Positions 1,369-16,491 of a DNA stretch of 23,803 nt are shown here, piece after piece. The notes beneath the pieces were generated by a model. That model had not been told where the DNA came from, did no database searches, and was given only the letters and a program-made list of their open reading frames with translations. The stretch is from the IMG/VR virus record IMGVR_UViG_2563366943_000008, positions 1-23,803 of that record. One strand, given 5' to 3'. Each line of letters starts with the position of its first letter. Position 1 is the first letter of the stretch. Both the position numbers and the translations under genes were made by a program. This stretch comes from a virus. Lineage: Duplodnaviria > Heunggongvirae > Uroviricota > Caudoviricetes.

Positions 1369-1444
1369 GCCGATATAGCTCAGTTGGTAGAGCAGCGCAT
1401 TCGTAATGCGAAGGTCGTAGGTTCGACTCCTATTATCGGCACCA
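1369..1444 (+). tRNA. thrW: tRNA-Thr (anticodon CGU), 76 nt with encoded CCA
   Basis: Sequence GCCGATATAGCTCAGTTGGTAGAGCAGCGCATTCGTAATGCGAAGGTCGTAGGTTCGACTCCTATTATCGGCACCA folds as a cloverleaf: 7-bp acceptor stem GCCGATA/TATCGGC, D-arm AGCTCAGTTGGTAGAGC, anticodon loop with CGT, T-arm GGTTCGACTCC. Position immediately downstream of proA matches the known thrW locus. Confidence 0.93.
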
Positions 1445-1609: not shown

Positions 1610-2824
1610 GTGAAACTCAATGCCCGTCAAATAGACACAGCCAAGCCAAAAGAGAAGGCTTACAAGCTGGCCGATGGTGGCGGTTTGTATCTCTTGGTAA
1701 AACCTAATGGAGGTAAATACTGGCGACTTAAATATCGTGTAGCTGGTAAAGAGAAGCTATTGGCACTAGGTGTTTATCCTGAGGTTACTCTAGCCGATGC
1801 TCGGGCAAAACGTGAAGATGCGAAAAGAGGTATCGCTGGTGGTATCGATCCGATGGAAGCGAAACGAGAGGAAAAGATTGCCCGGGAAACGCAGTTAAAC
1901 AACACCTTCAAAGATATTGCCCTTGAGTGGCACAGCAGCAAATTAAAAAAATGGTCTGCTGGTTATGCTTCAGACATCCTCGAAGCCTTCAACAAAGATG
2001 TGTTCCCTTACATTGGCAAAAAAACCATCGCCGAAATCAAACCACTTGAACTTCTGAATGTGCTGCGTCGCATCGAGGGGCGCGGTGCTACAGAAAAAGC
2101 CAAAAAAGTGAGGCAACGGTGCGGGGAAGTTTTCCGCTATGCAATAGTCACTGGTCGCGCAGAGTATAACCCTGCACCAGACCTTACTAGCGCGATGCAA
2201 GGCCATGAATCTAATCATTACCCTTTCCTTACAGCCAAAGAATTACCTGATTTTTTCAAGGCATTGTCCAGTTACTCAGGAAGCGCATTGGTTGTTATGG
2301 CGGCTCGTCTACTGATTATCACCGGCTTGCGGACTGGCGAACTACGTGGCGCATTATGGGATGAAATTGATTTCAACAAGGCTATCTGGGAGATACCCGC
2401 TTCACGTATGAAAATGCGGCGGCCTCATATTGTGCCATTGTCTGAGCAGGCTCTTTCGCTTATTGGGAAGATTAGAGAAATAACAGGCAATTACCCTCTT
2501 ATGTTTCCCGGGCGCAATGATCCAAGGAAAACAATGAGCGAGGCCAGCATAAACCAAGTGTTTAAGCGCATTGGCTACGCTGGACGTGTAACTGGTCATG
2601 GGTTCCGGCACACTATGAGTACGATTTTGCATGAGCAGGGCTATAACACTGCGTGGATAGAAACGCAGCTCGCTCACGTTGATAAGAACTCAATTCGTGG
2701 CACATACAACCATGCGCAATATCTGGATGGAAGGCGGGAGATGCTTCAATGGTATGCCGACTATATGGATTCTCTCGAGCATGGCGGAAATGTGGTGCAT
2801 ATGGTGTTTGAAAAACACGCATGA
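1610..2824 (+). CDS. int: tyrosine integrase, P4/IntA-type (site-specific recombinase), 404 aa
   Basis: GTG start at 1610 with GGAGG 10 nt upstream. N-terminal region typical of P4-family integrases (KLADGGGLYLLVKPNGGKYWRLKYR), C-terminal catalytic domain with HGFRHT and HxxR/Y context. Position directly 3' of a tRNA gene is the classic island arrangement. Confidence 0.9.
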   Translation: MKLNARQIDTAKPKEKAYKLADGGGLYLLVKPNGGKYWRLKYRVAGKEKLLALGVYPEVTLADARAKREDAKRGIAGGIDPMEAKREEKIARETQLNNTFKDIALEWHSSKLKKWSAGYASDILEAFNKDVFPYIGKKTIAEIKPLELLNVLRRIEGRGATEKAKKVRQRCGEVFRYAIVTGRAEYNPAPDLTSAMQGHESNHYPFLTAKELPDFFKALSSYSGSALVVMAARLLIITGLRTGELRGALWDEIDFNKAIWEIPASRMKMRRPHIVPLSEQALSLIGKIREITGNYPLMFPGRNDPRKTMSEASINQVFKRIGYAGRVTGHGFRHTMSTILHEQGYNTAWIETQLAHVDKNSIRGTYNHAQYLDGRREMLQWYADYMDSLEHGGNVVHMVFEKHA

Positions 2825-2919: not shown

Positions 2920-3220
2920 AAGGGCAATCGCTCTTTTAACAACGAAGATGGAATCTTCTACGCAGCTGAAAAGCTGGATGCTCTTTAACAGCCTTTGGTG
3001 CTTTTCTGATGCAGGAAAGAATAGGGATACATGCACCTTTACAATGCATGTAATGATTCATCCATGAGGCTGCGGAGCGCTGACAAAGCGCAATTGCTCT
3101 TTAACATTGATGTGGGCGGGATGGTTCGTCCCGCAGTGACCGATAGATTTCTATCGGGAAACATACAATGATTCAAATATGAATCTACGGCGCTGACAAA
3201 GCGCAATTGCTCTCTTGCCT
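2920..3220. repeat. intergenic repeat/palindrome cluster
   Basis: Perfect 24-bp direct repeat GCGCTGACAAAGCGCAATTGCTCT at 3077-3100 and 3190-3213. Related CTCTTTAACA motifs at about 2929-2948 and 2980-2993. Perfect palindrome CGATAGATTTCTATCG at 3141-3156. Small hairpin GCGGGA-N7-TCCCGC at about 3115-3135. Confidence 0.6.
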
Positions 3221-3542
3221 GCCCACCATGCCCTGAAAAAGGGCGTTCTTTAAAACTACTGGATGTCACGCCTAATAGCGTGATCCTGCCGAAATGCAGG
3301 GTAGCTCTACCCTTGTGGAGCAAACAAACCAAAACAATCTGACTATCTTTTATAAAAGACCGCAATATGTTTTTCATATTGTGGTCTTTGGCGTATTCGA
3401 CATTTGACGCAAATAAAACTCTCGCCATTCGTTGCAGGAGGGGGTTATTGCGTCATTAGTACAGGATATTAATAAATGGCTAATTACAATTCATTAATTC
3501 GTCTCTCTGAAGTTCAAAGGCGAACTGGGTAATGACTCCAAC

Positions 3543-4046
3543 TTATTGATAGTGTTTTATGTTCAGATAATGCCCGATGACTTTGTCATGCAGCTCCACC
3601 GATTTTGAGAACGACAGCGACTTCCGTCCCAGCCGTGCCAGGTGCTGCCTCAGATTCAGGTTATGCCGCTCAATTCGCTGCGTATATCGCTTGCTGATTA
3701 CGTGCAGCTTTCCCTTCAGGCGGGATTCATACAGCGGCCAGCCATCCGTCATCCATATCACCACGTCAAAGGGTGACAGCAGGCTCATAAGACGCCCCAG
3801 CGTCGCCATAGTGCGTTCACCGAATACGTGCGCAACAACCGTCTTCCGGAGCCTGTCATACGCGTAAAACAGCCAGCGCTGGCGCGATTTAGCCCCGACA
3901 TAGCCCCACTGTTCGTCCATTTCCGCGCAGACGATGACGTCACTGCCCGGCTGTATGCGCGAGGTTACCGACTGCGGCCTGAGTTTTTTAAGTGACGTAA
4001 AATCGTGTTGAGGCCAACGCCCATAATGCGGGCTGTTGCCCGGCAT
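3543..4046 (-). CDS. insB: IS1 InsB reading frame (expressed as the InsAB' transposase by -1 frameshift)
   Basis: 167-aa ORF overlapping the 3' end of insA in the -1 frame; sequence matches IS1 InsB. Confidence 0.85.
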
Positions 4047-4240
4047 CCAACGCCATTCATGGCCATATCAATGATTTTCTGGTGCGTACCGGGTTGAGAA
4101 GCGGTGTAAGTGAACTGCAGTTGCCATGTTTTACGGCAGTGAGAGCAGAGATAGCGCTGATGTCCGGCGGTGCTTTTGCCGTTACGCACCACCCCGTCAG
4201 TAGCTGAACAGGAGGGACAGCTGATAGAAACAGAAGCCAC
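3965..4240 (-). CDS. insA: IS1 InsA (transposition repressor / N-terminal part of transposase)
   Basis: 91-aa [43 protein letters not shown], a zinc-finger plus HTH protein matching IS1 InsA. Confidence 0.9.
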
Positions 4241-4304
4241 TGGAGCACCTCAAAAACACCATCATACACTAAATCAGTAAGTTGGCAGCATCACCGGGTG
4301 ATTA

Positions 4305-6410
4305 ATGGCTAAAGCATGGAAAGATGTTATCGCCTCTCCACAGTATCAGGCGTTAGCACCAGAACAAAAAGCGCAGGCTCAGGAGCAATACTTCAATGAA
4401 GTCGTGGCCCCGCAAGCCGGAGAAAGTGTAGCGCAGGCTAAGCAGGCTTTTTATGCTGCCTATCCACTACCATCAACGAATGAAATAGACCGATCCCAAT
4501 CAGCAACTCAAAATATTCAACATACATCATCTGATAATTCTCTTGCGTCAGGGTATGCAAAGTTAGCTACTCAGCAAAGAGAGGGGCTTGAGCGTTCAGC
4601 AGAACAGGGAGCCAGTCTTGGGGCTGCGATGCGCGATGCTATAACAGGCGAAAGCCGAATGACTCCAGAGATGGAGAGACTGCAAAATGTCGACCTTGCC
4701 CCAGAGTTAACCTCACTCAGCATGGGTGCTCTAAAAGCTCGATGGTCTCAACTTTTCGGCTCTGACGCATCTCAGGAAAAGATTCTTCAGAGCATGGGAG
4801 CGAAATTAAGGCAGGATGAGAAGGGTAACACTATCGTTTCCCTGCCATCCGGTGATTATGCTCTGAACAAGCCGGGTTTATCGCCGCAAGACGTGGCATC
4901 GTTTCTGGCTAATGCGCTGGCGTTTACACCAGCGGGCAGGGCTGGAACGGTGCTTGGTGCCATAGGAAAATCAGCAGCTACAGATTTAGCACTACAGGGA
5001 GCCACCAGCCTTGCTGGTGGAGAAGATATTGATCCGTTACAAACGGTAATTTCTGCTGGCATTGGTGGTATTGGTAAGGGGCTGGAAAATACAGCGAGTG
5101 CGGTTTCGAGGGCTGTTCGTGGTGATATGTCGCCTGAAGCAAAGGCTGCTGTCAACTTTGCATCGGAAAGAAATCTGCCGTTAATGACCAGTGACATGCT
5201 GAAAGATAAAACCTTTATGCAGAGTCAGGCTCAGACATTAGGCGAAAGAGTTCCTTTTTTTGGAACCGGTAAGAATCGGCTGAATCAACAACAAGCACGA
5301 GAAAATTTAGTCAGAACATTTAGCGATGGTCTGGGTGGCATTTCTGATAAACAGCTTTATGAATCTGCGACTAAAGGGCAACAAAAATTCATTGAGGCAG
5401 CAGGAAAGCGATATAACCGCATAATTGACGCTATGGGGGATACCCCTGTCGATCTCTCAAACACGGTAAAAGCTATCGACAATCAGATTGCCGTGTTAAG
5501 CCGCCCGGGCAAATCTCAGGATAGAGCCGCGGTAAAAGTCTTGCAGCAATTTAAAGACGATATCACCAGCGGACCAAATGACCTGCGTCTGGCGAGGGAA
5601 AACAGAACCGATCTTCGAAAGCGATTTATGGCGTCATCTGACACTGTTGATAAAGATACGCTCCAGAAAGCCAGCGATATTATCTACAAGGCATATACGG
5701 CGGATATGAAAAAAGCCGTAGCCAAAAATCTTGGAGCAGACGAAGCCATTAATATGGCAAGGGTTGATCGGTCATGGTCTAAATTCAATGACATGATGGG
5801 AAGAACGCGCGTTCAAAAGGCAATAGCCAGCGGTAAGGCCACGCCTGAGGATGTAACAAAACTCGTTTTTAGCCAAAGCCCATCAGAACGTTCTCAGCTT
5901 TACAGGCTTCTGGATGACAATGGTAGGCAAAACGCACGAGCAGCCATAGTTCAGAATGCTGTAGATAAGGCGACTGATCCGTCTGGAAATATCAGTGTTG
6001 AGAAGTTTATTAATGCGTTACACCGGAACAGGAAGCAATCAGCAACTTTCTTTAAAGGCGTACATGGAAAGGAACTGGACGGCGTTATTAAATACCTCAA
6101 CGATACAAGACACGCGGCAAAAGCGAACGTTCAAAACTTAAATGGTCAGCAGCTTTATGGATTGTTAGTTGGTGGTGGCATCATAAACGCAGCAGTATTA
6201 GCGGGGATGCTAAAAACGGCTGCGTTTGTTGTTCCTGCTGCTGGTGCCGTAGGCGGAGCAGCGAAGGCATACGAAAGCCCTGTTATACGAAATGCCTTGT
6301 TACGTCTGGCAAATACGCCAAAAGGTAGCACAGCATATGACAGAGCGATCAGTACGGTCACACAATCGCTCACCAGAGTCGCACAGGCATCACAAAAAGA
6401 AGCTCAATAA
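4305..6410 (+). CDS. large Ala/Gln/Lys-rich helical protein with C-terminal Gly/Ala-rich hydrophobic segment (function unknown; tape-measure-like or pore-forming-toxin-like)
   Basis: 701-aa ORF with consistent coding character. First ATG lies 9 bp after the IS1 end, preceded by an in-frame TGA and no Shine-Dalgarno, so the native N-terminus and promoter may be missing. About 37-residue hydrophobic stretch LYGLLVGGGIINAAVLAGMLKTAAFVVPAAGAVGGAA near the C-terminus. Confidence 0.5.
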   Translation: MAKAWKDVIASPQYQALAPEQKAQAQEQYFNEVVAPQAGESVAQAKQAFYAAYPLPSTNEIDRSQSATQNIQHTSSDNSLASGYAKLATQQREGLERSAEQGASLGAAMRDAITGESRMTPEMERLQNVDLAPELTSLSMGALKARWSQLFGSDASQEKILQSMGAKLRQDEKGNTIVSLPSGDYALNKPGLSPQDVASFLANALAFTPAGRAGTVLGAIGKSAATDLALQGATSLAGGEDIDPLQTVISAGIGGIGKGLENTASAVSRAVRGDMSPEAKAAVNFASERNLPLMTSDMLKDKTFMQSQAQTLGERVPFFGTGKNRLNQQQARENLVRTFSDGLGGISDKQLYESATKGQQKFIEAAGKRYNRIIDAMGDTPVDLSNTVKAIDNQIAVLSRPGKSQDRAAVKVLQQFKDDITSGPNDLRLARENRTDLRKRFMASSDTVDKDTLQKASDIIYKAYTADMKKAVAKNLGADEAINMARVDRSWSKFNDMMGRTRVQKAIASGKATPEDVTKLVFSQSPSERSQLYRLLDDNGRQNARAAIVQNAVDKATDPSGNISVEKFINALHRNRKQSATFFKGVHGKELDGVIKYLNDTRHAAKANVQNLNGQQLYGLLVGGGIINAAVLAGMLKTAAFVVPAAGAVGGAAKAYESPVIRNALLRLANTPKGSTAYDRAISTVTQSLTRVAQASQKEAQ

Positions 6411-6429
6411 CTGGTTAGCCATGGATGGC

Positions 6430-7044
6430 TTAGATATCTCTGCTGTCTCCATTAGGAAATAAAAGATAATATGGATTTGCCTTTCTTGCTCTCCTTGCTT
6501 CACCCGGATACCTGTTAGTCAGTAGCTTGCATAATGAGCAGAGAACAACACTCAAGAAAATTCCGAATGAGAAGATCAATATCTCACCAAAAATCAATGG
6601 CGATATTAAATTTTCAGGATTTAATGATAAGTCAATGTTAAAAACATATTGAGCAATACCAGTAAGTATCAATAATATAATCCCTATGGAATACATTGCT
6701 GTTTCCCAAACATCAGACAGTCTATTTTTGAATTGTTCGCTGGAGTAGTAGTTTGTTATAAAGTCAGAAAAATCACTCTCATATGCATCATCTTTAGGTG
6801 ATGTTAGAAATCCTCTGTCTCTCCATACCTTCTCCCAATTAGTCGATTCTTTTTTTAAGGAAAAATAAATATGTATTCCCAAAAGGATAGCCAAAATTGG
6901 TGTTAGCTCTAAAAAATAGAATGTTATGGAATAAATAATACTGCCATGTTCAAACTCATCTGGGACTATCATGTATGCACAAAAATAAATTGAAAAGTAC
7001 ACCATGCAGATAGTTAGCAATTCTTTAGTATCTTTTCTGCTCAC
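6430..7044 (-). CDS. integral membrane protein, 4 predicted TM helices (candidate immunity / abortive-infection membrane protein)
   Basis: 204-aa ORF with GTG start at 7044 and AAGGGGG Shine-Dalgarno upstream. Four long hydrophobic helices with a charged central loop. Very AT-rich compared with the adjacent 701-aa gene. Convergent with that gene, with a 19-bp gap containing a palindrome. Confidence 0.6.
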   Translation of the reverse strand: MSRKDTKELLTICMVYFSIYFCAYMIVPDEFEHGSIIYSITFYFLELTPILAILLGIHIYFSLKKESTNWEKVWRDRGFLTSPKDDAYESDFSDFITNYYSSEQFKNRLSDVWETAMYSIGIILLILTGIAQYVFNIDLSLNPENLISPLIFGEILIFSFGIFLSVVLCSLCKLLTNRYPGEARRARKANPYYLLFPNGDSRDI

Positions 7045-7498
7045 ACCAACCCCCTTTAGCGTTGTTTAGAATGGCAATCATCATATATCCAAGACATGGC
7101 ATTTGGTACATAGCTTGGGTCGGGATTTCAAGTCCGCTCCCAGTTGATGGGGCCGTTACAGTACGCGCATATCCGCTTTATGTGAAACAGGAAGATTTTT
7201 CTGATATCACTGCCACAGCAAAACACCAATTTCGTGACCAGTACGCGCGCGAGGGGTATCAGTTGCAAAATTTTTTGCAACTGCGTCCGACCAGTACGCA
7301 CACGATGGCGGGGGATACCATAAAACTGTTCTCTACATGAGACAGAGTGGTGGTGATGTGTTGATTATCGGCGTATATGCGCACAGGACGCGCTATGACG
7401 ATGTTTTATGCGGGTACACCAATCACATGTATCTGGTGTGATAAATCGCGTTACATGACCTCTCATGTTGTGCTGGTGGTTATCACGACTTTCTGAAT

Positions 7499-7542
7499 CT
7501 GGCCTTTGCCTGATATTTTGCGACAAGTACGCGCGCGTAGCA
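7499..7542. repeat. dispersed repeat with alternating CG core (copy A)
   Basis: CTGGCCTTTGCCTGATATTTTGCGACAAGTACGCGCGCGTAGCA. Partial relatives at 7231-7253 (TTTCGTGACCAGTACGCGCGCGAG) and 7283-7303 (CCGACCAGTACGCACACGA). Confidence 0.6.
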
Positions 7543-7565
7543 TCGACAGCATACACATTGGATAT

Positions 7566-7787
7566 TCATTTTGTGACCAATGCGATAAGTAGCGGGATAA
7601 GAATTGATAAAATCAACAGGCCGATGATCCACTTTTGATTTTCACTGGCCTTATCTCTATTTTCATCAATCTTATCAATAATTCGACGCTCCAATCCGTG
7701 CATATCACCGCGAATGGCAATCATCTCATTGCGAACATCAGGGAAGTGGTTGGCTTGATGTTCAATGTGTGGCGTTCTGCCTTTCAT
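7566..7787 (-). CDS. small protein with N-terminal coiled-coil and single C-terminal TM helix (XhlA/holin-like architecture)
   Basis: 73-aa ORF; C-terminal WIIGLLILSILIPLLIALV is a clear TM segment. Architecture resembles small prophage membrane proteins. Not verified by homology. Confidence 0.4.
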   Translation of the reverse strand: MKGRTPHIEHQANHFPDVRNEMIAIRGDMHGLERRIIDKIDENRDKASENQKWIIGLLILSILIPLLIALVTK

Positions 7788-7866
7788 ATCTGATCCTCAC
7801 CTATCGTCACTACCTGCTGGTGTATAAAGGTATTGGCCCAAGCAACTTTCCAATGGGCACTCATGT

Positions 7867-8322
7867 TTATACGCTGACCTTACAATCAATCACTGCTTTT
7901 AGCTTTTCAGCATTGCTTCCCTGACGCTTCCACGCGCTGTAAATATCTTTATCCCACGCTTTACCAGCTTTTGTTTGATAGCCTGCTTCATTGATCCGTT
8001 CAGCTATCACACGCCCATTATCAAATCCCTGTTGGATGGTATCGGCAATGATCTTTATAACTGCCGTTTCGTTATATGGTTTTGGTGGGATGTTCGGCTT
8101 TCCGGCAATAAGCGACGCAGCGGCTTTTTCCATGCGCTCCACCAGCCCAAGCATTCGTGAATCAATAGACTTTTCCGGCTGCCCCAGCTTCATGCGAATC
8201 GCATCAACAAGCCAGGAGGTTTTATCTCCTCCAGAAGCGAGAACAGACCGATTAAACTCATCCTGCAATTCAGATGGGATGCGGAACGCGACCAGATTAG
8301 ATTTGCTCATTGCAAAGACCAT
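7867..8322 (-). CDS. putative ribbon-helix-helix DNA-binding regulator with C-terminal extension
   Basis: 151-aa ORF. N-terminus NLVAFRIPSELQDEFNRSVLASGGDKTSWLVDAIRMKL fits a beta-strand / helix / helix RHH pattern. A palindromic operator-like sequence lies immediately upstream. An alternative start at 8310 (MSKSN) is possible. Confidence 0.5.
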   Translation of the reverse strand: MVFAMSKSNLVAFRIPSELQDEFNRSVLASGGDKTSWLVDAIRMKLGQPEKSIDSRMLGLVERMEKAAASLIAGKPNIPPKPYNETAVIKIIADTIQQGFDNGRVIAERINEAGYQTKAGKAWDKDIYSAWKRQGSNAEKLKAVIDCKVSV

Positions 8323-8339
8323 ATCAGTGAGTAATATCC

Positions 8340-8545
8340 ATACAGTATACCACTGTATAACACTGTTATACGCTCAAATATCAGCCAGAAAATAACGGAC
8401 CAATCACAAATCTATCGCTGTGTTGTTGGTTCAGAGCTGGGCTGTGTTGGTTCAAAATGAGTTGATGTTGGTTCAATATTTCAGAAAAAACACAATAAAA
8501 ACAACAATCTTTACAAATTGAACCAACTGAACCAACTGAACCAAC
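8340..8545. promoter_or_regulatory. divergent control region with phased iterons
   Basis: Palindrome GTATAAC-ACT-GTTATAC at 8355-8371. Three direct copies of TGTTGGTTCA at 8424, 8445 and 8467 (spacing 21-22 bp). AT-rich spacer. Three tandem inverted copies TGAACCAAC at 8519, 8528 and 8537. TATAAT at 8563-8568 just before the 8582 start. Confidence 0.55.
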
Positions 8546-8581
8546 ACCTTTTTGCTTATCTATATAATCTGAGAGGCAGAA

Positions 8582-8863
8582 ATGATAAGGGACAGGAAAG
8601 CTGAAGAGCTGGAGTCAAAAGGGCTATACCGGAGAGCTGCCGCACGATGGATGGAAGTCATGCTGTTATGCACCGAGGACGATGATCGGGAATGGATAAA
8701 GCGCCGCCGTGAAACGTGTCTGGAGAACGTGAAGCGCCCGCCCGTGAAGGTTGAGGAATTTGGCGACCTGCATAAAGCTGTTACCGAAACGCAACACCGC
8801 ATGGGGATAGCGCAACCGAACGGTAACGCCTTCCGGTTAAATGGCGGCAAGAGGCAAAGGTAG
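8582..8863 (+). CDS. small transcription-activator-like protein (PerC-family-like, tentative)
   Basis: 93-aa ORF MIRDRKAEELESKGLYRRAAARWMEVM. The N-terminal motif resembles PerC/Pch-type prophage regulators as recalled from memory. Directly downstream of the iteron region. Confidence 0.45.
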   Translation: MIRDRKAEELESKGLYRRAAARWMEVMLLCTEDDDREWIKRRRETCLENVKRPPVKVEEFGDLHKAVTETQHRMGIAQPNGNAFRLNGGKRQR

Positions 8864-8888
8864 ACCACCAGAGGGAAATCATCCTCTG

Positions 8889-8934
8889 GCTGGCGGTTTC
8901 TGGTATTTCGGGACAAGTACGCGCGCGCGTAGCA
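8889..8934. repeat. dispersed repeat with alternating CG core (copy B)
   Basis: CTGGCGGTTTCTGGTATTTCGGGACAAGTACGCGCGCGCGTAGCA. Same orientation as copy A, core GACAAGTACGCGCGCG(CG)TAGCA identical apart from one extra CG unit. Confidence 0.6.
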
Positions 8935-9160
8935 CCCAATCGGTGAGGAAATAGCGGCGACCTGAATGGTCAAAATCACAACGCAGCTATCCCCGTAAGC
9001 AGCGCTTAACGGAATAGCAGTAACCTGAATCCAGTGGGGAGGGGGTAGTCAAATCTCTACAGCCCTGACTATCCGGGACTGCCCGCCCCATCGTTTTTTT
9101 ATACCCGCGAAAAATGAAATTTAATCCGGGCGTGTTTCATTCTTCCAGAGGGTATGACGT

Positions 9161-9346
9161 ATGACACCACGCGAAATAGCCTTATTGACCATCGCCAAAC
9201 TTGAGCACGGAGGCCACCAGCTTACACAGGCAGATCAACGGGAGATAGAACGATCAGTTAATGCCGATATAGCCCGGCGCGACAGGTTCCGCGAAATGAT
9301 GCGAGCACCTGCCTACCAGTGGAAGAAGCCAGCGCCGCGCAGGTAG
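9161..9346 (+). CDS. hypothetical small protein (61 aa)
   Basis: ORF with a GAGGG Shine-Dalgarno-like sequence upstream; no recognisable motif. Confidence 0.3.
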   Translation: MTPREIALLTIAKLEHGGHQLTQADQREIERSVNADIARRDRFREMMRAPAYQWKKPAPRR

Positions 9347-9466
9347 ATATGGGATTATTCCACATGTAACTTATGCGTATTAAGCAAATTTCCTTTATTC
9401 ACCTTTACAGAATTGTGAGTACGTCAGTATCGTTATCCTTCCGATTCGCATTTATTCAGGATTTGC

Positions 9467-10009
9467 ATGTACCAGCTAAAGATAACCATCCGAGACAGCA
9501 AACCACCTATATGGCGGCGTGTGCTGGTTCCAGAGCAAATCCCCTTTAGTAAACTTCATGCCGTGATCCAGTTAGCTTTTGGCTGGAATGACGAACACCT
9601 GTATATGTTCGAGAAAGGGCGTAAAGGTGATCCAGGTAGCGAGTATCGCGTATGGGGTGAGGATGAAAGCATGGGTAACGCGGCAATCACGCCACTATGG
9701 GCGGCGCTCCAGAATGAGGGTGACAAGCTGGTTTACACGTATGACTTTGGCGACTGGTGGGATTGCGTCATTGTGCTGGAGAAGCAAACACACGATACGA
9801 GTAATCAGCCCATTAGCTGCCTGCGTGGGAAAGGCACCACCCCGGCGGAAAACTCAGGCGGCTTGCATGGTTACAATGAATTGCTATTACAGGCCAGAGA
9901 GTCTGATAATCCTGAGCAGGCCGAGATCCACAATTTCCTGATGCTGGATATTGAACGCCGGGTTTACGACCTGAGCCGCATCAACGACAGATTGCAGGCT
10001 ATTAACTGA
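9467..10009 (+). CDS. pRiA4b ORF-3-like family protein (tentative)
   Basis: 180-aa ORF containing YTYDFGDWWDCVI, which resembles the YxYDFGDxWxHxI signature I recall for the plasmid pRiA4b ORF-3-like domain. Confidence 0.45.
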   Translation: MYQLKITIRDSKPPIWRRVLVPEQIPFSKLHAVIQLAFGWNDEHLYMFEKGRKGDPGSEYRVWGEDESMGNAAITPLWAALQNEGDKLVYTYDFGDWWDCVIVLEKQTHDTSNQPISCLRGKGTTPAENSGGLHGYNELLLQARESDNPEQAEIHNFLMLDIERRVYDLSRINDRLQAIN

Positions 10010-10361
10010 CCCGCATGTATTCACCTGATATTGCGTTGTCAGCGCCGCCAGTATCGCGCATAACAGCGCACTGACCGGGTAAACCGTAGCGCACGACCGT
10101 TGCGTTAGTATCACCGCCGCGCCGTATCTGGCGCGATTCATACACTGTCACCCGCTCAAGCAGTCCACCAGCAACCATGCTTTCCAGTGTGCGCCGGGTT
10201 GATTCGAGCTGGTGACGCTTATCGAACGACACCATGCCATGAAGCAGGTAGGCCACACCCGACACATCGAACGGCGGCGCACCAATCTCACCAGTCACCC
10301 ATTCGAGGTTATCCGGTTCAAAGTAGCTAAGTATCTCTTTTTTGCGGCTGGTCATTCTCAT
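10002..10361 (-). CDS. hypothetical protein (119 aa)
   Basis: ORF convergent with and overlapping the 3' end of the 9467-10009 gene by 8 bp; AAGGA-like Shine-Dalgarno upstream of the ATG at 10361. Function unknown. Confidence 0.35.
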   Translation of the reverse strand: MRMTSRKKEILSYFEPDNLEWVTGEIGAPPFDVSGVAYLLHGMVSFDKRHQLESTRRTLESMVAGGLLERVTVYESRQIRRGGDTNATVVRYGLPGQCAVMRDTGGADNAISGEYMRVS

Positions 10362-10480
10362 GGCTGGCTGATTCCTTATTGTGGGATAGCACTATCATAC
10401 AATAAGTGGGTTAAAGGGAGAGCGTTACCGCCTGATATGCTGTATGAATAACAACCAAATTTCAGGGGCGGAAAAAGATA

Positions 10481-10501
10481 TGGGGGTACTTTTGGGGGTA
10501 T
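10481..10501. repeat. second copy of the TGGGGGTAC-N3-TGGGGGTAT motif pair
   Basis: TGGGGGTACTTTTGGGGGTAT at 10481-10501 versus TGGGGGTACTTATGGGGGTAT at 1558-1578: same orientation, one mismatch. Confidence 0.7.
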
Positions 10502-10562
10502 CTATAAAAAATGAACAATAAAAAAGGCAACAAAAACAAAGCTTATCGCCTATGTGTATTGT

Positions 10563-10582
10563 TCCTATTATCGCACAATCAA
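10563..10582. other. degenerate direct repeat of the tRNA-Thr 3' end (candidate attR core of module 1)
   Basis: TCCTATTATCG-CAC-AATCAA aligns with tRNA 3' end TCCTATTATCGGCACCATTCAA (1428-1449): 11/11 identical, then gapped similarity. Lies about 60 bp beyond the second TGGGGGTA pair. Confidence 0.45.
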
Positions 10583-11182
10583 GAAAATCAATAACTTAGC
10601 TTAACTTCTCTAAGAAATTGTATCTTCTGTTATCACTTACAAACGCCTATACGTTGTTATGGGCTTTGGTAGTGTAACACGTATGGGCGAGTAGTTCCCA
10701 GGCTCAACCTCGTAACAAGTTCCTTTGAAGCTGGAAGACGTGCCACCGTCTCTAAACCTTCTACCAAAACTCTTAGCAAGATGTTCCACACCTGGCGCGG
10801 TGTCCAATGATGCTACACGTCGTGAGACGTTGCAGAGGATAAACAGGCTAAATGATGGGAAGAGTTTTAAGTGCAATAGTGGATCAAAGCCCACCTCTTC
10901 AAAACCTAACTTGATCGGGAAAGAATCAAGCTCTAGCACGGTTTCGTCCACCGGAGTACAACGGGTGCCTGATAAGAGAAGAACTGCTAAGACTTCATAG
11001 CTTTTGTGAAAAAGCCCTTTTAGTGGATACGCCTACGGCGCTTATTTTTTGGGGTAGCCCATCAAAGGCGCTTTATGGCTCCTATTGTCTTGAAAATGTA
11101 TCTTTACTTGTATTGTGTTTTATGCGTAGTCTCCCTGTGTAGTATGTAACTTGTTAATTTTCATATGAATACAGAGGCACAC

Positions 11183-11341
11183 GATGAAAAACATTGCAGC
11201 TATCAAACGTAATAACCGCAAGATTCACGCTCGTAAGTTCCTGTCTACGCCAGAAGGAAAAGCCTGGCTAGAGCGTAAACAGAGAGAGAACGAAGAAAGA
11301 AAACTCCTTAATGAGTTGAAATGGCTTAGAGAGGATTTCTG
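11183..11341 (+). CDS. hypothetical small basic protein (52 aa)
   Basis: ATG at 11183 with GAGG 6-9 nt upstream; translation MKNIAAIKRNNRKIHARKFLSTPEGKAWLERKQRENEERKLLNELKWLREDF. Below the ORF-track size cutoff, so found by eye. Coding status uncertain. Confidence 0.25.
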
Positions 11342-12153
11342 AAAATCTCCAGAACGCAACAGGACGCATTCTAACGCTATTTTCATTGCTTGGTATAGGG
11401 ATGTATAGGTGATGTGTGTTTAATGCGTCTGTGCGCTTGTTTTGTGCCTTATTTTGCATTTTCATAATGCAGAAGAGAACACGGAAAACCTTAAAATTAA
11501 TTATTGGGGTATTTAAGGGTATTTTCAGGTGATTTAAGGGTATTAAACTTGATTTAATTGATTAAAATATAAACAGATAGTTGTGTATCTTATTGATTTA
11601 TAAGGTTATTTTTAAATAAAGGTAAATAAAAAATAAATAGCCATAAATAGCTATAAATACATCTAAATACCTATATCCCTTCCCTTATGGCTAGATTGCG
11701 AGAGGTGCTTAACGCGATTTTCAGCGCCCCCCGATCTGGAAAATCCAGAATCCCCAAATATCAGCAAGGAATTTTCTTGCGTAATCAACATCGTTTTTAC
11801 CTATTAAATCATTACACAGAAAGCCTTTCTGTAATGTCTCTCACTAAACTTTCACTAAACACGAGAATGATCGGTTTTATGTCGGATCAGATGCTAGAAA
11901 CAGCACCACGTCTCACAAGGACTGTAAGCGATGAAACCAGTGTTTATGCGGGTGCAGGTCAAAATATAGGCCAAAATCAATTTAACATAATAAACGTAAT
12001 ATGCACTAAGGAACACATAGAACGCCTTGAGTTGATGTATCAGGGGAAAAGTGATGGATTTTTTACGTAGGAGCACGAGAGGGCTTCTGTTGACTTTTGT
12101 ATGCTATGAAACATAATTAAAGGTTTTTTTGTTTTTATTGTGTGATGTAGTGG

Positions 12154-13127
12154 ATTACACAGGGGAATAGATTAAATGGTGTTCTGTTTATACAGGTTTA
12201 TTTGTTAGATCAACAATTTGGCATTTCTAAACAGATGTTTGAACGTTGCCAAATGTCTTGACAACACAAGAAAAGGGCTTGCTATGCCACGCATTACACG
12301 AAATAAGGCTGTAAAAACAAAATAAATTTTAAAATTTGCACAAACGAGAAAACTCGTTAAGAAACAAGCAGAACAATTTTTAGCCAACAATTTCTGATGG
12401 TGCTCTGTAGGCCGCACTACACAAGGATTTGCGAAAGTGATGTAAAAGTGAAGAAAGTAAGAATTGCACTTTTAAGCTACTTTTCATTGAATTTTTAGTA
12501 TGGAATTACACAGGAATAAGTTAGGGATATTCTATGATTTACACAGGGAATATAGGGGATTATGGCACACACATAGAAAGGCATTACACAGAGTGAGTGC
12601 TATGTGATGATTGGTAGTAACGGTAGGTCATAGTGAGCTAGGGGGTAGGTCACTGTGAACTACAATAAGACTATTAATAAAACTATATTAGATTATTAAT
12701 TAGATCATAATAATAATATTCTTTATATCTATATATATGATCTTTTGCCTTCCGGCGTTAGCTTCACTCTCTGGCAAGCAGCCTTACTCCGCTACCTTTC
12801 GGGCTTCGTGGCTGGCCCGTTCCGCTCACACCGAAAGCAAAGCGTTACTTTCTTCGTGTAACTTCGTTGGCGGTAACGCCCACGAAGAAATCTATTGCGC
12901 TGTGCGCAGTAAGAGTAATCACCTAACCAATCATACTGATTGCTTATGTGTTAACTCTCTCTAACTCTTAATTACCCTCCTACATTTAATAACTCTGTTA
13001 TTCTCTGTAGTTGTGTAATTACTCGAAGAGAGAGCGGCTAAAGCTCAATTACACTCTGCTTTCCTCGTGTAATTTCACTAAGCCTCAATACAATTTCACT
13101 TCCTACATTCTGTAGTCGTGTAATTGT
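12154..13127. repeat. iteron field flanking an AT-rich tract and GC-rich core (origin-like region)
   Basis: Direct copies of (A/T)TTACACAGG(G/A)AATA at 12154, 12505, 12538 and 12583, plus variants at 12293 and 12417. Inverted copies CGTGTAA(T/C) at 12855, 13012, 13066 and 13117. 17-bp repeat TCTGTAGT(T/C)GTGTAATT at 13004 and 13110. GGTAGGTCA repeats at about 12625 and 12649. Extremely AT-rich tract at about 12660-12745. Confidence 0.5.
12745..12915. ncRNA. candidate structured RNA or single-strand initiation element (strand undetermined)
   Basis: GC-rich patch inside AT-rich DNA. Hairpin CTTCGTTGGCG-GTAA-CGCCCACGAAG (12862-12887; 10 of 11 positions pair, GNRA-type tetraloop). Hairpin CGGGC-N10-GCCCG (12800-12819). 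Long-range complementarity CTTACTCCGC (12783-12792) with GCGCAGTAAG (12904-12913). The overlapping 75-aa ORF has a non-protein-like sequence. Confidence 0.25.
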
Positions 13128-13761
13128 TTTCGGTGGAAAAGCCAGAGGCGACACCGAAAGAGAATTCTGATCTTATTAATCTTATCTATCTTAGTTAATC
13201 TTCTTACTTATCTTACTTACTTTATCTACTTTATTATTAATAATAGCTTTATAAGCTCTCTGTGTAGCTCTCTGACGCAAGAAACAGCATTCAGGAAGGG
13301 AATCACCTTAGAAAAGGTGTTCTTTGCGTCATAATGTGTTTTATGAAGGATTCAGAGGTGTTTCATAACAGGAATGTATAGAGAATACTTTAGGTAATTA
13401 AAAATAAGGGGTCTAAATGCTTCTCTAACAGCATTAAGCAGGGTAGGGAATGGAAACGCATTGCCTACATATAATAAACTCACTACAGGGCTTTACAGGG
13501 CGTTTTATAAAGCGACTCTCTGTTTTATATCTACAATCACCTTTTCATATACCTAACAAATACAAAATAAGCCCCTTAAATAAGCCTCTGGCGAGCTAAA
13601 CAGACATTACATAAGAGAATGTATTGCTTTTATCAAAACTTCGTTAGAACGCGTTTTAGAGCGTTTTAGCGGATAATGAAGAATAGCACTACACAGAAGA
13701 GCACGAATTGCTAAGACAAATTATAACATGCTGAAAAAGATCGATTTTTTCGAAAAGGGTA

Positions 13762-13790
13762 TTGACAAATGTTTCTTTATATGTAATAAT
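13762..13790 (+). promoter_or_regulatory. sigma70-like promoter upstream of the rightward small-gene array
   Basis: TTGACA at 13762-13767, 16-17 bp spacer, TAATAA(T) at 13784-13790. The -35 is embedded in GGGTATTGACA, sharing the GGGTATT motif seen elsewhere in the element. Confidence 0.4.
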
Positions 13791-13903
13791 AGGTATTAGA
13801 GGGACAGAAAAACATTCTTCTCTAAATAATCAAAATCAATGCACTTTGAAGCCGTCAGGCTTGCAAGGTGTTTTATTTCTTTTAACTGAATAAGGAGTTT
13901 TTT

Positions 13904-14092
13904 ATGAAATGGTTTACACCGGAGCACGTCGTAAAGGCATTTAAAAAAGGTGAGCTTACACGCCACCAAATAGTAATGAATCGTAATATGGCAAGGAGTC
14001 GAGGTTATCCAGAGCGAGCAGCTTGCTTCAATGAAGCACTCAAGATTATTGATGAACTAAGAAAAAATGAAAAAGAATCTGAAACAGAGTAA
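13904..14092 (+). CDS. hypothetical small protein (62 aa)
   Basis: ATG preceded by TAAGGAG Shine-Dalgarno at optimal spacing; first gene downstream of the promoter. Confidence 0.5.
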   Translation: MKWFTPEHVVKAFKKGELTRHQIVMNRNMARSRGYPERAACFNEALKIIDELRKNEKESETE

Positions 14093-14111
14093 AGAAGAGA
14101 AGGAGAAAACT

Positions 14112-14282
14112 ATGAGCGAAGCTACAGAAAAGAAAAGACAACCACGCACTTGCTTTCATATTCCTGATGAAGTATTTCAGGTGTTGTTTAAAGAAGCCAG
14201 AAGTAAACGTATCACTGTTACAGATTACATTCTTGATATGTTGAAAAGAGAGGCTGAAACACTCTCAAATAAAAGCAAGTGA
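14112..14282 (+). CDS. putative ribbon-helix-helix (CopG/Arc-like) DNA-binding protein, 56 aa
   Basis: ATG at 14112 with GAAGGAG upstream. RTCFHIPDEVFQVLFKEARSKRITVTDYILDMLK fits strand-helix-helix. The ORF track starts earlier (14067) at an upstream in-frame ATG lacking a Shine-Dalgarno. Confidence 0.5.
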   Translation: MSEATEKKRQPRTCFHIPDEVFQVLFKEARSKRITVTDYILDMLKREAETLSNKSK

Positions 14283-14335
14283 TTTTTATCACCATAGTAG
14301 CGCCATAGAGCGTGATTACATCAAGGAGATTTTTA

Positions 14336-15028
14336 ATGATTAACCAACTAACTTTTACAAAACACTATGACACGTTTGATAATATATCAAAGATTTATTC
14401 TGATAAATTCCCTCAAGGAAAAGATTTAGATCTATTACATATTGTGCTTTATTTTCGATTCCTTAGTTATCAGGAAAACAACCTTAATTGTTATGAAAGT
14501 CACGAAACATTAGCTAAGATTTTTAAGTCTTCACCATCAACAATTAAACGTAAGATAAACGATCTTAAAGAGATGGGATTATTAGAAACATCCCCACATC
14601 CTGATCCGTATATTTCATCTTTGATTTACAATGCTCTCCCTCTCACAGATGCACATATTACTCCCCCAGGAGAATCATCACTCTCTGATCTTTCTGAGGC
14701 AGAAGAAGCACAGGAACAACCTAAAGGCCATAAACAGCCTTCTTTTGATGTTCTTGATGATGATTGGGATACGCCTTTACCCTGGGAGACGGAAGAAACA
14801 CCTGTTTCATCAAGTGAAAAGGTAGCTAATGATAATGAGGAGGATGTGTTAGAGAATTTTGCCTCTCTTATCATCCAGGAGAAACACAAAAGAACAGGAG
14901 GGGCATCATTTATAGAATTTGCAAATTCACTAGCTTGTAGATACGGGCTAAAACGACCAAATGGTATTGAGGCATATTTTTCTAAGCATTACCCAAATGT
15001 ATACGAAGACTTTGATATTCCCTTTTAA
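14336..15028 (+). CDS. putative winged-helix DNA-binding protein with acidic C-terminal tail (replication-initiator / replisome-organiser-like)
   Basis: ATG at 14336 with AAGGAG 9 nt upstream (ORF track starts at 14312). N-terminal segment ETLAKIFKSSPSTIKRKINDLKEMGLLE is a typical HTH. C-terminal third is strongly acidic (DDDWDTPLPWETEETP...EEDVLENF). Confidence 0.45.
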   Translation: MINQLTFTKHYDTFDNISKIYSDKFPQGKDLDLLHIVLYFRFLSYQENNLNCYESHETLAKIFKSSPSTIKRKINDLKEMGLLETSPHPDPYISSLIYNALPLTDAHITPPGESSLSDLSEAEEAQEQPKGHKQPSFDVLDDDWDTPLPWETEETPVSSSEKVANDNEEDVLENFASLIIQEKHKRTGGASFIEFANSLACRYGLKRPNGIEAYFSKHYPNVYEDFDIPF

Positions 15029-15044
15029 AAAGTAAGGAGGACTA

Positions 15045-15323
15045 TTGATACAGTATTTAATAAAAAGCAAAGTAGACAGAATTCAGTGTAACGACACAGG
15101 AAAACGCATCTACGAAACGCTTGCTTACCTCTATAAAGGAAAGCCAACACCGCTAAAATATAGCGATGTGTTACATCGAGCAGGTTGCTCTGAGTCAGGT
15201 TTAAAATTCTGGCTGAAACAGCTATCAAATTTCGGTGTTATTGAAATGAAAGAGCTGTCTTTCTCTACATTTAATCTCAAAAGACTAGATAAAGAAATAG
15301 AATTCATCTATTCCACTCTCTAA
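15045..15323 (+). CDS. small HTH-type DNA-binding protein (92 aa)
   Basis: TTG start with very strong TAAGGAGG Shine-Dalgarno 6 nt upstream. Contains a probable HTH (YSDVLHRAGCSESGLKFWLKQL). Confidence 0.45.
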   Translation: MIQYLIKSKVDRIQCNDTGKRIYETLAYLYKGKPTPLKYSDVLHRAGCSESGLKFWLKQLSNFGVIEMKELSFSTFNLKRLDKEIEFIYSTL

Positions 15324-15455
15324 AATCTCTCTATGTAATTAAAATATAAAAGGAAAACATTATTATGATAGTAGCTATGTATTGGTTATTGTTCTTTCTC
15401 ACGTTAGAAGCATATTTCGGGGTGTTTTCCTTTAAAAGAAAAGGAAAAGTAAATT

Positions 15456-15866
15456 ATGGCAAAAAGAAAAAACAACGTTGTTAAGAAAATCGGTGATTCA
15501 GCTTCTCTTCTAAGTAAACCTAAATCTATTCTAAAACGTAAAGACTTTAAAGAGCTAGTTACGCTCACCAAGCATAATAGCGCCCCTGGCGAATGGAAAA
15601 CAGAGATCATAGAACATTCTCCCTCTGTGCCTTGTGGAGATGAATATATCGCCTTACAAGAAATCTTATCTTCAACACCTGGCGTGTTCTGGAAACCTAA
15701 AAAAAGAAAAGAGTATATCGTTGATAGCTCTGATTTACGCAAATACCAGATTTTAGGATTTGAAGATTATAATCACTACGTTGGTTATCTCGCCACAAAT
15801 GGCCTAAATAATTTAGTTCCTGAATTCCAGATTTTAGATAATGCAGATCACTATGGAGACTTTTAA
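15456..15866 (+). CDS. hypothetical basic protein (136 aa)
   Basis: ATG with AAGGAAAAG upstream. Lys/Arg-rich N-terminus. Stop codon is 1 nt before the start of the next gene. Confidence 0.5.
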   Translation: MAKRKNNVVKKIGDSASLLSKPKSILKRKDFKELVTLTKHNSAPGEWKTEIIEHSPSVPCGDEYIALQEILSSTPGVFWKPKKRKEYIVDSSDLRKYQILGFEDYNHYVGYLATNGLNNLVPEFQILDNADHYGDF

Positions 15867-15867
15867 T

Positions 15868-16206
15868 ATGAACAAAAACACGTATGACACAATTTACTCA
15901 CTAATTAATTATTATGAGGATGATTACCTCCTGCCTTTAAACCGCGCTGAACTTGAAGCATACAAAGAAAACACGCCAGCGGCACTAAATGAGGCGTTTA
16001 AACACTGGGATTTAGCTGTGAATGCCTTTGAGCACCTCTCTAAGCGTGTAGAGATGCTCTGTAAGCGCGAAAACGCATACCTGACAGCCGATCAGGTATG
16101 GGAATTATCAAACTGGATAGAAGATATTGAATCTGATGTTCGCTATGTGGGAGATGGACTTGTTGAACTAGCGCAACGCTTAGGCGCTACTATCACAGAA
16201 GAATAA
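15868..16206 (+). CDS. hypothetical acidic protein (112 aa from ATG 15868; in-frame alternative starts at 15841 and 15853)
   Basis: GGAG 9 nt upstream of ATG 15868; translationally coupled to the preceding gene. Confidence 0.45.
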   Translation: MNKNTYDTIYSLINYYEDDYLLPLNRAELEAYKENTPAALNEAFKHWDLAVNAFEHLSKRVEMLCKRENAYLTADQVWELSNWIEDIESDVRYVGDGLVELAQRLGATITEE

Positions 16207-16235
16207 AAAAAGCAACAAAAAAGTTGTAAAATATC

Positions 16236-16264
16236 TTGACATTCCATCTATTGTATGTTAATAT
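16236..16264 (+). promoter_or_regulatory. near-consensus sigma70 promoter
   Basis: TTGACA (16236-16241), 17-bp spacer, TAATAT (16259-16264). Confidence 0.5.
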
Positions 16265-16270
16265 AATTAT

Positions 16271-16491
16271 ATAGGGGTGATTATTTTTCCTTTATTGGTT
16301 CGATATTAAAAATTCTTCCTGTCATTAAAGGGGAGTAAAATCTCCGCTCCCCGCTTCTTCTCCTCCTTAAGTAAATACTGTGCCATTATACCTCTTTGTT
16401 ATGCATACATCTTGGAGTATGCATAACATAGGGTAATTACATAGGTATGAGTTAATAAAAGGCGGCTTTAAATGCTGCCTTTTATTTTGCC
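16271..16491 (+). ncRNA. candidate small RNA or structured 5' leader (about 220 nt)
   Basis: Lies between the promoter at 16236-16264 and a hairpin plus T-tract at 16457-16488 (AAAAGGCGGC-TTTAAAT-GCTGCCTTTT-ATTTTG). No ORF longer than about 11 codons on this strand. Contains hairpin GGGGAG-N11-CTCCCC (16330-16352), pyrimidine tract CTTCTTCTCCTCCTTA (16355-16369), and inverted repeat TTATGCATA / TATGCATAA (16399-16426). Confidence 0.3.

Follow-up and report, generated by a model that had tools for sequence, protein, structure and literature searches.

Convergent gp16-family and SieA-like genes on a probable IS1-truncated EcCIMP1-type satellite island of Escherichia coli

This study concerns two convergent genes in the virus record IMGVR_UViG_2563366943_000008. 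The window, meaning the whole stretch of 23,803 nucleotides that was analysed, is Escherichia coli chromosome, in which proA, the tRNA gene thrW, a tyrosine integrase gene and an IS1A insertion are followed by the two genes. The larger gene encodes a homolog of the P22 ejection protein gp16, and the smaller gene, called sieA-like here, encodes a putative superinfection exclusion protein of the SieA family. The element that carries them is most probably a phage-inducible chromosomal island (PICI) of the EcCIMP1 family, a satellite of P22-like phages, and not a prophage. The coordinates of all features are listed in Table 1.

The two convergent genes and their products

The product of the larger gene belongs to the P22 gp16 family of ejection proteins. 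It matched phrog_770 'DNA transfer protein' over residues 19-700 (E=3.6e-159). BLASTP against P22 gp16 gave 30% identity (E=2e-52), with an alignment spanning the apolar segment described below and the YES..RN.LLRLANT..G..AY.RA tail. When the 701-amino acid (aa) protein was searched by tblastn, gene 16 of 167 phage records was matched; the best phages were Lederbergvirus N7 and HZ41 (67%), followed by the Proteus, Sf6, ST64T and L phages (31-39%). Identical or near-identical copies are named 'P22-gp16 family phage DNA ejection protein' or 'injection protein' in RefSeq. PF26808 (Phage_P22_gp16) is present in the precomputed Pfam annotation of 701-aa homologs, but it was not returned by our own hmmscan of Pfam-A with the 701-aa protein, so the two Pfam sources disagree. 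Pfam and NCBIfam scans gave nothing meaningful for either protein, and neither gp16 nor the SieA-like profile retrieved a relative in sequence searches of PDB. The gp16 gene is mosaic, its first 170 nucleotides (nt) being about 96% identical to Sf6-type genes and the remainder diverged.

A preliminary description, made from the sequence without database searches, had pointed to a large protein with a Gly/Ala-rich hydrophobic segment near the C-terminus, and this was borne out. Only one stretch of the 701-aa protein is strongly apolar; its centre lies at aa 624-644 (QQLYGLLVGGGIINAAVLAGMLKTAAFVVPAAGAVGGAA), and the Kyte-Doolittle 19-residue maximum is 1.79. The alignment of nine gp16 C-termini gave a common module, in which TGQ is followed by a Gly/Ala-rich apolar stretch and then by the tail motif given above. 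A 9-aa insertion, LYGLLVGGG, is found within the apolar segment of the window and Citrobacter alleles and raises its hydrophobicity. The segment is homologous across the gp16 proteins and not peculiar to the window allele.

The P22 gp16 and Sf6 gp13 ejection (E) proteins resemble the window protein in full-length homology and in the conserved C-terminal module, and part of this likeness is that gp16 follows gp20 in the sibling islands with overlapping stop and start codons. P22 gp16 has 609 aa, whereas the window gp16 is longer and has a mosaic N-terminus; the window protein is also satellite-encoded, has lost its gp20 and has the extra 9-aa apolar insertion. In the literature, gp16 is regarded as the inner-membrane component of a gp7/gp20/gp16 trans-envelope DNA conduit (PMC10883804; PMC8954989; PMC13622523). 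The gp7-gp20-gp16 operon order is absent in the window, where IS1 replaced all the upstream DNA, and is kept in the sibling islands. Packaging in the virion and ejection would be the putative family role of the window gp16.

The product of the smaller gene belongs to the SieA superinfection exclusion family by sequence. It matched phrog_7745 'superinfection exclusion SieA-like' (E=4.4e-4), and BLASTP gave 29% identity to P22 SieA (type A, E=8e-8) and 34% identity to the HS1 prophage SieA of E. coli HS (type B, EcHS_A0321, E=2e-9). In hhalign, the window clade was compared with a set including P22 and HS1 SieA and gave a probability of 99.4% (E=2.5e-21, 129 columns). When the window protein and its nearest relatives were made into a profile and searched against 1.84 billion representative proteins, 42 matches were obtained at E<=1e-3, most of which also align to P22 and HS1 SieA in pairwise BLASTP. 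Superinfection exclusion had been offered in the preliminary description as an alternative for this protein, and the BLASTP, PHROG, hhalign and motif results agree with that alternative.

The SieA motif FxRYPxEAxxFNK was placed on the cytoplasmic side by Leavitt et al. (mBio 2024, PMC10883804). The corresponding window motif, TNRYPGEARRARK, keeps the RYPGEA core and the final K, with T for F and AR for FN, and the window stretch EQFKNRLSD corresponds to ERFENRITD of P22. Among 33 family members, N107 and R108 of the NRxSD stretch and R178 and P180 of the RYPGEA stretch are invariant, and D111, C172 and R187 are nearly so.

Four hydrophobic segments were found by hydropathy in the 204-aa protein. 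The confident AlphaFold2 model (predicted local distance difference test, pLDDT, 87.3; predicted template modelling score, pTM, 0.75) was used for topology only; it shows long helices at residues 3-30, 36-66, 105-141 and 151-176, and short helices in the loop between transmembrane (TM) helices 2 and 3 and in the C-terminal tail. Lys and Arg are concentrated in the N-terminus, the TM2-TM3 loop and the C-terminal tail, and there are none in the short loops 29-35 and 137-150. By the positive-inside rule, this distribution suggests an N-in/C-in topology with both conserved motifs in the cytoplasm, as predicted for SieA.

Other searches with the small protein were negative. Foldseek with the AlphaFold2 model found no fold relative, the best E being 0.28 in BFVD and 3.4 in PDB. 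No match was obtained by tblastn against 50,697 phage genomes at E<=10; no sequenced phage in this set carries the window clade, and the protein is too divergent and too short for tblastn. When the contigs of a single genome per species were scanned with the clade alignment, none of the 38 pattern matches was confirmed. PADLOC matched neither the window protein nor P22 or HS1 SieA, and its library is therefore without the family. No Pfam family covers the 204-aa protein, and the window clade is labelled 'hypothetical protein' in RefSeq.

The preliminary description had further claimed a convergent, AT-rich neighbour with four TM helices. This was found to be correct, with a 19-nt gap between the stop codons, a GC content of 0.332 against 0.475 in the large gene (0.435 in the whole window) and four helices in the AlphaFold2 model. 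The sharp GC contrast had been taken as a sign of separate origins. The contrast was confirmed, but the neighbourhood of the genes is no accident, since the same contrast and layout occur in P22 (0.50 for gp16 and 0.34 for sieA), in HS1 (0.47 and 0.36) and in a Citrobacter prophage (0.50 and 0.38). The AT-richness of the small gene is a property of the locus across lineages.

The pair of open reading frames (ORFs) is not due to chance, because it is recurrent in E. coli genomes and both genes are under purifying selection. The 3.2-kb stretch at window 4200-7400 is covered to >=80% in 99 complete E. coli genomes, with 100% identity to strains SCU-172, AF3 and MSB1_4I, and a complete sieA-like gene is present in 102 of the 5,426 complete E. 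coli genomes (about 2%). The ratio of nonsynonymous to synonymous polymorphism (pN/pS) was 0.11 for gp16 (12 copies) and 0.13 for the sieA-like gene (14 copies). The sieA-like ORF is whole in 14/14 copies, and gp16 is disrupted in 2/14 loci, with an IS66 insertion in one and no called gene in the other.

The GTG start of the sieA-like gene has an AAGGGGG Shine-Dalgarno sequence upstream, at about 7050-7056. A promoter and terminator scan found no terminator-like site in the 19-nt spacer; a GCCAT..ATGGC repeat within it was considered as a terminator and dismissed, its loop being just 2 nt. The spacer in the same place in P22 is 22 nt. No Rfam match was found at E<=0.1 over window 4200-9000.

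SieA types and the position after gene 16

In a database of 5.8 billion proteins, the relatives found of the small protein were confined to E. coli (99-100%) and to a single Citrobacter freundii cluster (50%). Further relatives, in Serratia fonticola (41%) and in a Providencia rettgeri/Proteus mirabilis cluster (P0007, 33% over 192 aa), came from the exhaustive profile search. In the published classification, E. coli has types A and B only and type C is confined to Providencia, Morganella and Proteus, with 3 TM helices in type A and 4 in types B and C (PMC10883804). The window protein is neither type A nor type B (29-34% local identity), and it comes closest to the Providencia/Proteus cluster (33%). 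The window clade, consisting of the E. coli PICI, Citrobacter and Serratia fonticola proteins, may belong to type C, of which the window protein would then be a member in E. coli, or may form a fourth type.

The likeness to known SieA proteins is at several levels. P22 and HS1 SieA share with the window protein the homology, the RYPGEA core, the NRxSD stretch and the polytopic inner-membrane architecture predicted here, and their AT-rich genes lie convergent about 20 nt after gene 16, as in the window. The extra N-terminal TM helix of types B and C is shared by the window protein, and type C SieA is of similar length (197-210 aa) with an N-terminal extension that contains this helix (PMC10883804). 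In contrast, the identity to P22 and HS1 SieA covers the C-terminal half only and the flanks of the motif are altered. All sieA genes in Leavitt et al. lie in P22-like prophages (PMC10883804), whereas the window gene lies on a PICI satellite.

Synteny of gp16 and a SieA-like gene is conserved. P22 has gene 16 (+) and, 22 nt further on, sieA (-), which encodes 164 aa, and HS1 has the same layout. The Citrobacter homolog lies in a complete P22-like prophage with the order coat … gp7, gp20, gp16, the convergent homolog, a 105-aa ORF, mnt, arc, ant and tailspike. In Providencia/Proteus and in Serratia, the homologs occupy the sieA slot of P22-like prophages, where they are flanked by mnt and by a gp16 gene of convergent orientation. 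The identities of gp16 and of the SieA-like protein to the window proteins are 76 and 50% in Citrobacter, 62 and 41% in Serratia, 34 and 33% in Providencia, 30 and 29% in P22, and 30 and 34% in HS1. The adjacency to gp16 and the convergence hold in the window and in all relatives. The preliminary description had counted a lack of co-occurrence elsewhere against its reading; the pair was found together in every lineage examined. The prophage context is present in the Citrobacter, Serratia and Providencia relatives, and the carrier in E. coli is a PICI without gene 9.

The sieA slot of other P22-like phages holds different small genes, also convergent with gene 16. In Proteus phage Brookers, the slot (L022 5545-6021) holds a putative lipoprotein of 158 aa with a weak Cor-like signal-peptide match, and in phage N7 (L003 6902-7222) it holds a 106-aa ORF. 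It seems that this site generally serves as a slot for morons or exclusion genes.

The carrier island and its state in the window

Thirteen other E. coli loci were examined, namely SLK172, ten loci with a 99%-identical protein and two sampled from complete genomes, and all 13 are EcCIMP1-type PICIs. The intact SLK172 island contains int, a helix-turn-helix (HTH) gene, AntA/B, DUF4222, Icd-like and small ORFs, a TOPRIM/DUF927 primase gene, a 57-aa ORF and gp20 (488 aa); it continues with gp16 (701 aa), the convergent sieA-like gene, an abortive-infection (Abi) gene, a 146-aa ORF and PerC, on to paoD. In each of the 12 loci beyond SLK172, a primase gene (DUF927 or DUF5906 type) precedes an ejection-protein module, which the sieA-like gene follows, and no coat, portal, terminase or tailspike gene was found within 10 kb in those 12 loci. 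The islands occupy at least 3 chromosomal sites, at thrW, beside yicG/ligB and beside vat/marR.

The module has at least three allelic forms. Two of them stand beside the sieA-like gene, DUF2824 (gp14)-gp7-gp20 (473 aa)-gp16 (701 aa) and 57-aa ORF-gp20 (488 aa)-gp16 (701 aa). The 57-aa ORF upstream of gp20 in the SLK172 island was considered as a gp7 remnant and matched no Pfam family. A third allelic form, gp14-gp7-gp20 (439 aa)-gp16 (906 aa, with a transglycosylase domain), was also observed. The module following the primase is seen in L002 (SLK172) 10366-14749, L013 10001-15471, L023 (MP1) 13632-19827 and L028 6164-11633.

EcCIMP1 itself (proA…yagU, E. coli MP1) is mobilised by Kapi1, which excises and transfers it and was termed a close relative of P22 (Pick, Stadel and Raivio, ISME J 2025, PMC11773190). 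The same paper reports that EcCIMP1 adds superinfection immunity, that PADLOC and DefenseFinder gave no known defence system, and that its PerC-like gene is described as a repressor of the enterocyte effacement locus (LEE); 'DNA transfer' and DUF2824 genes after the primase were also noted there (PMC11773190). EcCIMP1 occupies the same proA-thrW...yagU site as the window island. The integrase region of the window has about 97.6-97.7% nucleotide identity to the SLK172 island and to EcCIMP1 of MP1, the PerC and pRiA4b-ORF3 accessions are shared, and a 430-bp non-coding block (window 7117-7546, 97% identity) and the right arm are common to both islands. An ejection-protein module after the primase is present in EcCIMP1 and in the intact siblings of the window island.

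The cassette of EcCIMP1 differs from that of the window. It has the 906-aa gp16 with a transglycosylase domain, a co-oriented lipoprotein gene and no SieA-like gene, and the window island has lost alpA through gp20 to IS1. The slot after gene 16 in MP1 (L023 13632-14330) encodes the lipoprotein, of 232 aa with the lipobox LLAGC, which had no PHROG or PADLOC match. This lipoprotein is a candidate for the unexplained superinfection immunity of EcCIMP1.

The window copy of the island is truncated. IS1 replaced about 8.9 kb of the PICI, corresponding to 3092-12000 of the SLK172 locus L002, and alpA, the antirepressor, ash/icd, the primase, the 57-aa ORF and gp20 were deleted. Window 3184-3531 corresponds to L002 2744-3091, and window 4296-7546 corresponds to L002 12001-15251. 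The start codon of gp16 is 9 nt past the end of IS1, and gp16 is an intact but orphaned ORF, the island regulator and primase being lost. The PICI features left in the window are the integrase, the thrW site and the right arm (PerC and its neighbours); the sibling islands have all the PICI features. Excision or transfer of the truncated copy is unlikely. Between the integrase and IS1, window 3003-3531 is a short rearranged stretch, of which 3003-3183 is unmatched.

About 365 additional E. coli genomes share just 76 nt at the 5' end of the sieA-like gene and upstream of it (window 7040-7116), and another 'hypothetical protein' begins there in those genomes. The same upstream region therefore fronts other genes in the slot, and a shared regulatory function may reside in window 7040-7546. 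Between the sieA-like gene and the conserved 147-151-aa gene, window 7547-7911 is a variable cargo slot that is unmatched in other islands. Elsewhere the cargo slot holds Abi_2, a Peptidase_M78 gene with a 125-aa ORF, or 318-aa and 145-aa ORFs, and it looks like a defence hotspot of the PICI family.

In E. coli HS, the P22-like prophage HS1 with its type B sieA and a PICI-type integrase stand in tandem at thrW (L007 6832-48341; 48838 onward). The attachment region at thrW is shared by helper-type prophages and the PICI family, which would make exchange of the gene 16/sieA cassette easier. At the other end of the window, 10400-23803 is a second, unrelated integrative element of low GC (about 0.31-0.40), and the sole ORF of >=110 aa within 10400-14300 is a 127-aa ORF at 11687-12070.

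Table 1 Coordinates of the features found in the window.
Feature	Position	Strand	Remarks
tRNA-Thr (CGT), thrW, island integration site	1369..1444	+	ARAGORN; RefSeq on identical AF3 DNA
Tyrosine integrase	1610..2824	+	Pfam Arm-DNA-bind_3, Phage_int_M, Phage_integrase
129-aa ORF	3039-3428	-	RefSeq 'hypothetical protein'; no family match
IS1A insertion	about 3532..4295	-	InsA/InsB ORFs 3543-4240; RefSeq IS1A family transposase
Predicted gp16-family ejection (DNA transfer) protein gene	4305..6410	+	701 aa, ATG start
Apolar Gly/Ala-rich C-terminal segment of gp16	6144..6266	+	aa 614-654, hydropathy
Spacer between convergent stop codons	6411..6429	.	19 nt, from sequence
Predicted SieA-family gene	6430..7044	-	204 aa, GTG start, four TM helices, AT-rich
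Non-coding region upstream of sieA-like	7045..7546	-	about 500 bp, normal GC
73-aa ORF with C-terminal TM helix	7566..7787	-	phrog_6324, E=5e-11
Conserved 147-151-aa PICI gene	7867..8322	-	divergent from perC; no Pfam family found
PerC-family regulator	8582..8863	+	identical to EcCIMP1 protein WP_000617443.1; same accession in AF3 and MP1
HTH protein (second element)	14312-15028		
gpE-like major capsid protein (second element)	17141-18169		
IS2 insertion (second element)	about 19380-20650		
Dit-like tail protein (second element)	21674-22387		
Integrase, right end (second element)	22469-23803	-	running off the window

Probable exclusion of P22-like phages and alternative readings

We consider it probable that the locus is the right-hand part of an IS1-truncated EcCIMP1-type PICI at thrW, which carries a gp16 homolog together with a divergent SieA-family protein that would block DNA entry of P22-like phages. 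A link between the two proteins is provided by P22 mutants that escape SieA, which have the gp16 changes P546S and G532W together with gp20 changes (PMC10883804). In our alignments, G532 of P22 gp16 corresponds to G614 of the window protein and P546 corresponds to K637. These predicted equivalents bracket the apolar segment of gp16, and the SieA-like protein would be expected to counter the role of this region in infecting phages.

The proposed mechanism is as follows. After release from the virion, gp16 would insert at the inner membrane and complete the gp7/gp20/gp16 trans-envelope DNA conduit. The SieA-like protein would reside in the inner membrane with its N- and C-termini and its conserved motifs in the cytoplasm, by analogy with P22 and HS1 SieA, and would prevent either the assembly or the operation of the gp20/gp16 conduit when a P22-like phage infects. 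The phage would adsorb and its DNA would not enter. The analysis itself established the homology of both proteins, the motif, topology, synteny and distribution, and the purifying selection; the exclusion activity, its target range and the expression of the gene are inferred. Since gp20 and the upstream operon are lost, the window gp16 is most likely a recently stranded passenger. The sieA-like gene, which retains its own upstream region, is likely to be the part of the locus that is active.

Several points weigh against this reading. The identity to characterised SieA proteins is just 29-34% and does not extend beyond the C-terminal ~110 residues, part of the published motif is altered (TNRYPGEARRARK against FxRYPxEAxxFNK), and the PHROG match is weak by itself (E=4e-4). 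A simple scan upstream of the sieA-like gene found no consensus sigma-70 promoter; the promoter would lie within the upstream region of the gene. Leavitt et al. found sieA in P22-like prophages only (PMC10883804), and a copy borne on a PICI could have shifted its role. EcCIMP1 gave non-lysogens no protection from Kapi1 (PMC11773190). Furthermore, the sieA-like gene cannot account for the published EcCIMP1 immunity, because the slot in MP1 holds the lipoprotein.

It seems unlikely that the pair is instead a matched 'lock and key' cassette, in which the PICI supplies its own gp14/gp7/gp20/gp16 for helper-built particles plus a SieA-type gene, so that the ejection proteins of the satellite particles are suited to, or unblocked by, their own exclusion protein and both the helper and competitor P22-like phages are excluded. 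The ejection-protein module is constant in EcCIMP1-type PICIs, which are without capsid, portal, terminase and tailspike genes, and its gp16 is under purifying selection there. The gp16 gene and its downstream gene are swapped together, the 701-aa gp16 with the sieA-like gene and the 906-aa gp16 with the lipoprotein gene, and the identities of gp16 and SieA-like proteins drop in parallel (76/50, 62/41, 34/33 and 30/29%). Sensitivity to SieA is set by the ejection-protein alleles, and gp16 and gp20 must match each other (PMC10883804). However, tight linkage by itself predicts such co-divergence, and self-resistance is no trait of the family, since P22 SieA excludes P22 itself (PMC10883804). The sieA-like gene is intact where gp16 is disrupted in 2/14 copies and orphaned in the window, and the entry of PICI-encoded ejection proteins into virions is an assumption of this alternative.

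It is similarly doubtful that EcCIMP1-type satellites of P22-like phages carry a swappable cassette, with their own ejection proteins as the 'key' for helper-built particles and a membrane exclusion gene after gene 16 (SieA-like here, the lipoprotein gene in EcCIMP1) as the 'lock' that decides which ejection proteins can open the host cell. If this were true, satellites, helpers and rival phages would contend over DNA entry itself, and the superinfection immunity seen with EcCIMP1 could be accounted for.

An inert remnant, left from a P22-like prophage that was captured by or fused to the island so recently that both ORFs are still intact, is quite unlikely. IS1 did remove gp20 and everything upstream in the window, the E. 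coli copies are 99-100% identical and thus little time has elapsed, and P22-like prophages and the PICI family share the thrW site and can be in tandem, as in E. coli HS. Against this, the module is found in PICIs with two primase types, at the several chromosomal sites listed above and in several allelic forms, and pN/pS is about 0.1 for both genes. The sieA-like gene is intact in all 14 copies although IS elements struck its neighbours, and the pair is not flanked by gene 9, coat or portal fragments.

A shifted function was also weighed, in which the protein is SieA-related in sequence and acts as an abortive-infection membrane effector or excludes other satellites or non-P22-like phages. 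The low identity to characterised SieA proteins, the adjoining variable cargo slot with Abi_2 and other genes, and the lack of any defence-finder model covering the protein are in its favour. It is nevertheless very improbable, since the two tested SieA types are 24% identical and yet indistinguishable in specificity (PMC10883804), the conserved motifs and the topology are retained, and the gene is always beside gp16.

The bacteriocin reading of the preliminary description, a large protein with a hydrophobic segment next to a convergent polytopic immunity protein, has next to no likelihood: the likeness, an apolar segment of ~40 residues near the C-terminus and a four-TM neighbour of other composition, is superficial, no colicin pore or immunity family was found in Pfam at E<=1 and neither a PDB sequence relative nor a fold match was found, the large protein has full-length phage gp16 homology with strict synteny to gp20, gp7 and gp14 in sibling loci, the small protein is SieA-homologous, and the locus is chromosomal and inside a PICI with no lysis gene annotated beside the pair. 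Immunity proteins of pore-forming colicins are small inner-membrane proteins with 3-4 TM helices, which neutralise an incoming membrane-inserting protein. Their relation to the SieA-like protein would be one of functional analogy; no sequence or family relation was found, and the target here would be a phage DNA conduit and not a toxin. The toxin-immunity picture thus names the wrong family and may be close in logic, as in both cases a polytopic inner-membrane protein would neutralise a membrane-inserting protein from outside. The other suggestion of the preliminary description, a tape-measure-like remnant, fared no better, with no tape-measure match in Pfam or PHROG, a full-length gp16 homolog, and gp14, gp7 and gp20 of short-tailed phages as neighbours in the intact loci. 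It was in the right functional neighbourhood, that of a phage protein ejected to build a DNA conduit.

That a convergent sieA follows gene 16 in P22 is textbook knowledge. In the literature searched, no paper linking SieA to PICIs was found, and what is new against that literature is the divergent unannotated clade, its presence in E. coli, and a PICI carrier with its own ejection-protein module. The invariant residues N107, R108, R178 and P180 are concrete targets for mutagenesis, and the window and Citrobacter gp16 alleles, with their 9-residue insertion where the P22 escape mutations map, are natural test alleles. Few known defences act at the step of DNA entry, and SieA is one of them; the gp20/gp16 conduit was identified as its target only in 2024. 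For superinfection immunity of the EcCIMP1 type, the PICI context offers two candidate explanations, namely the ejection-protein module and the gene that occupies the slot following gene 16. In the E. coli loci examined, SieA-type exclusion would be extended from phages to their satellites, and about 2% of complete E. coli genomes would carry a block to P22-like entry that is overlooked by current defence finders.

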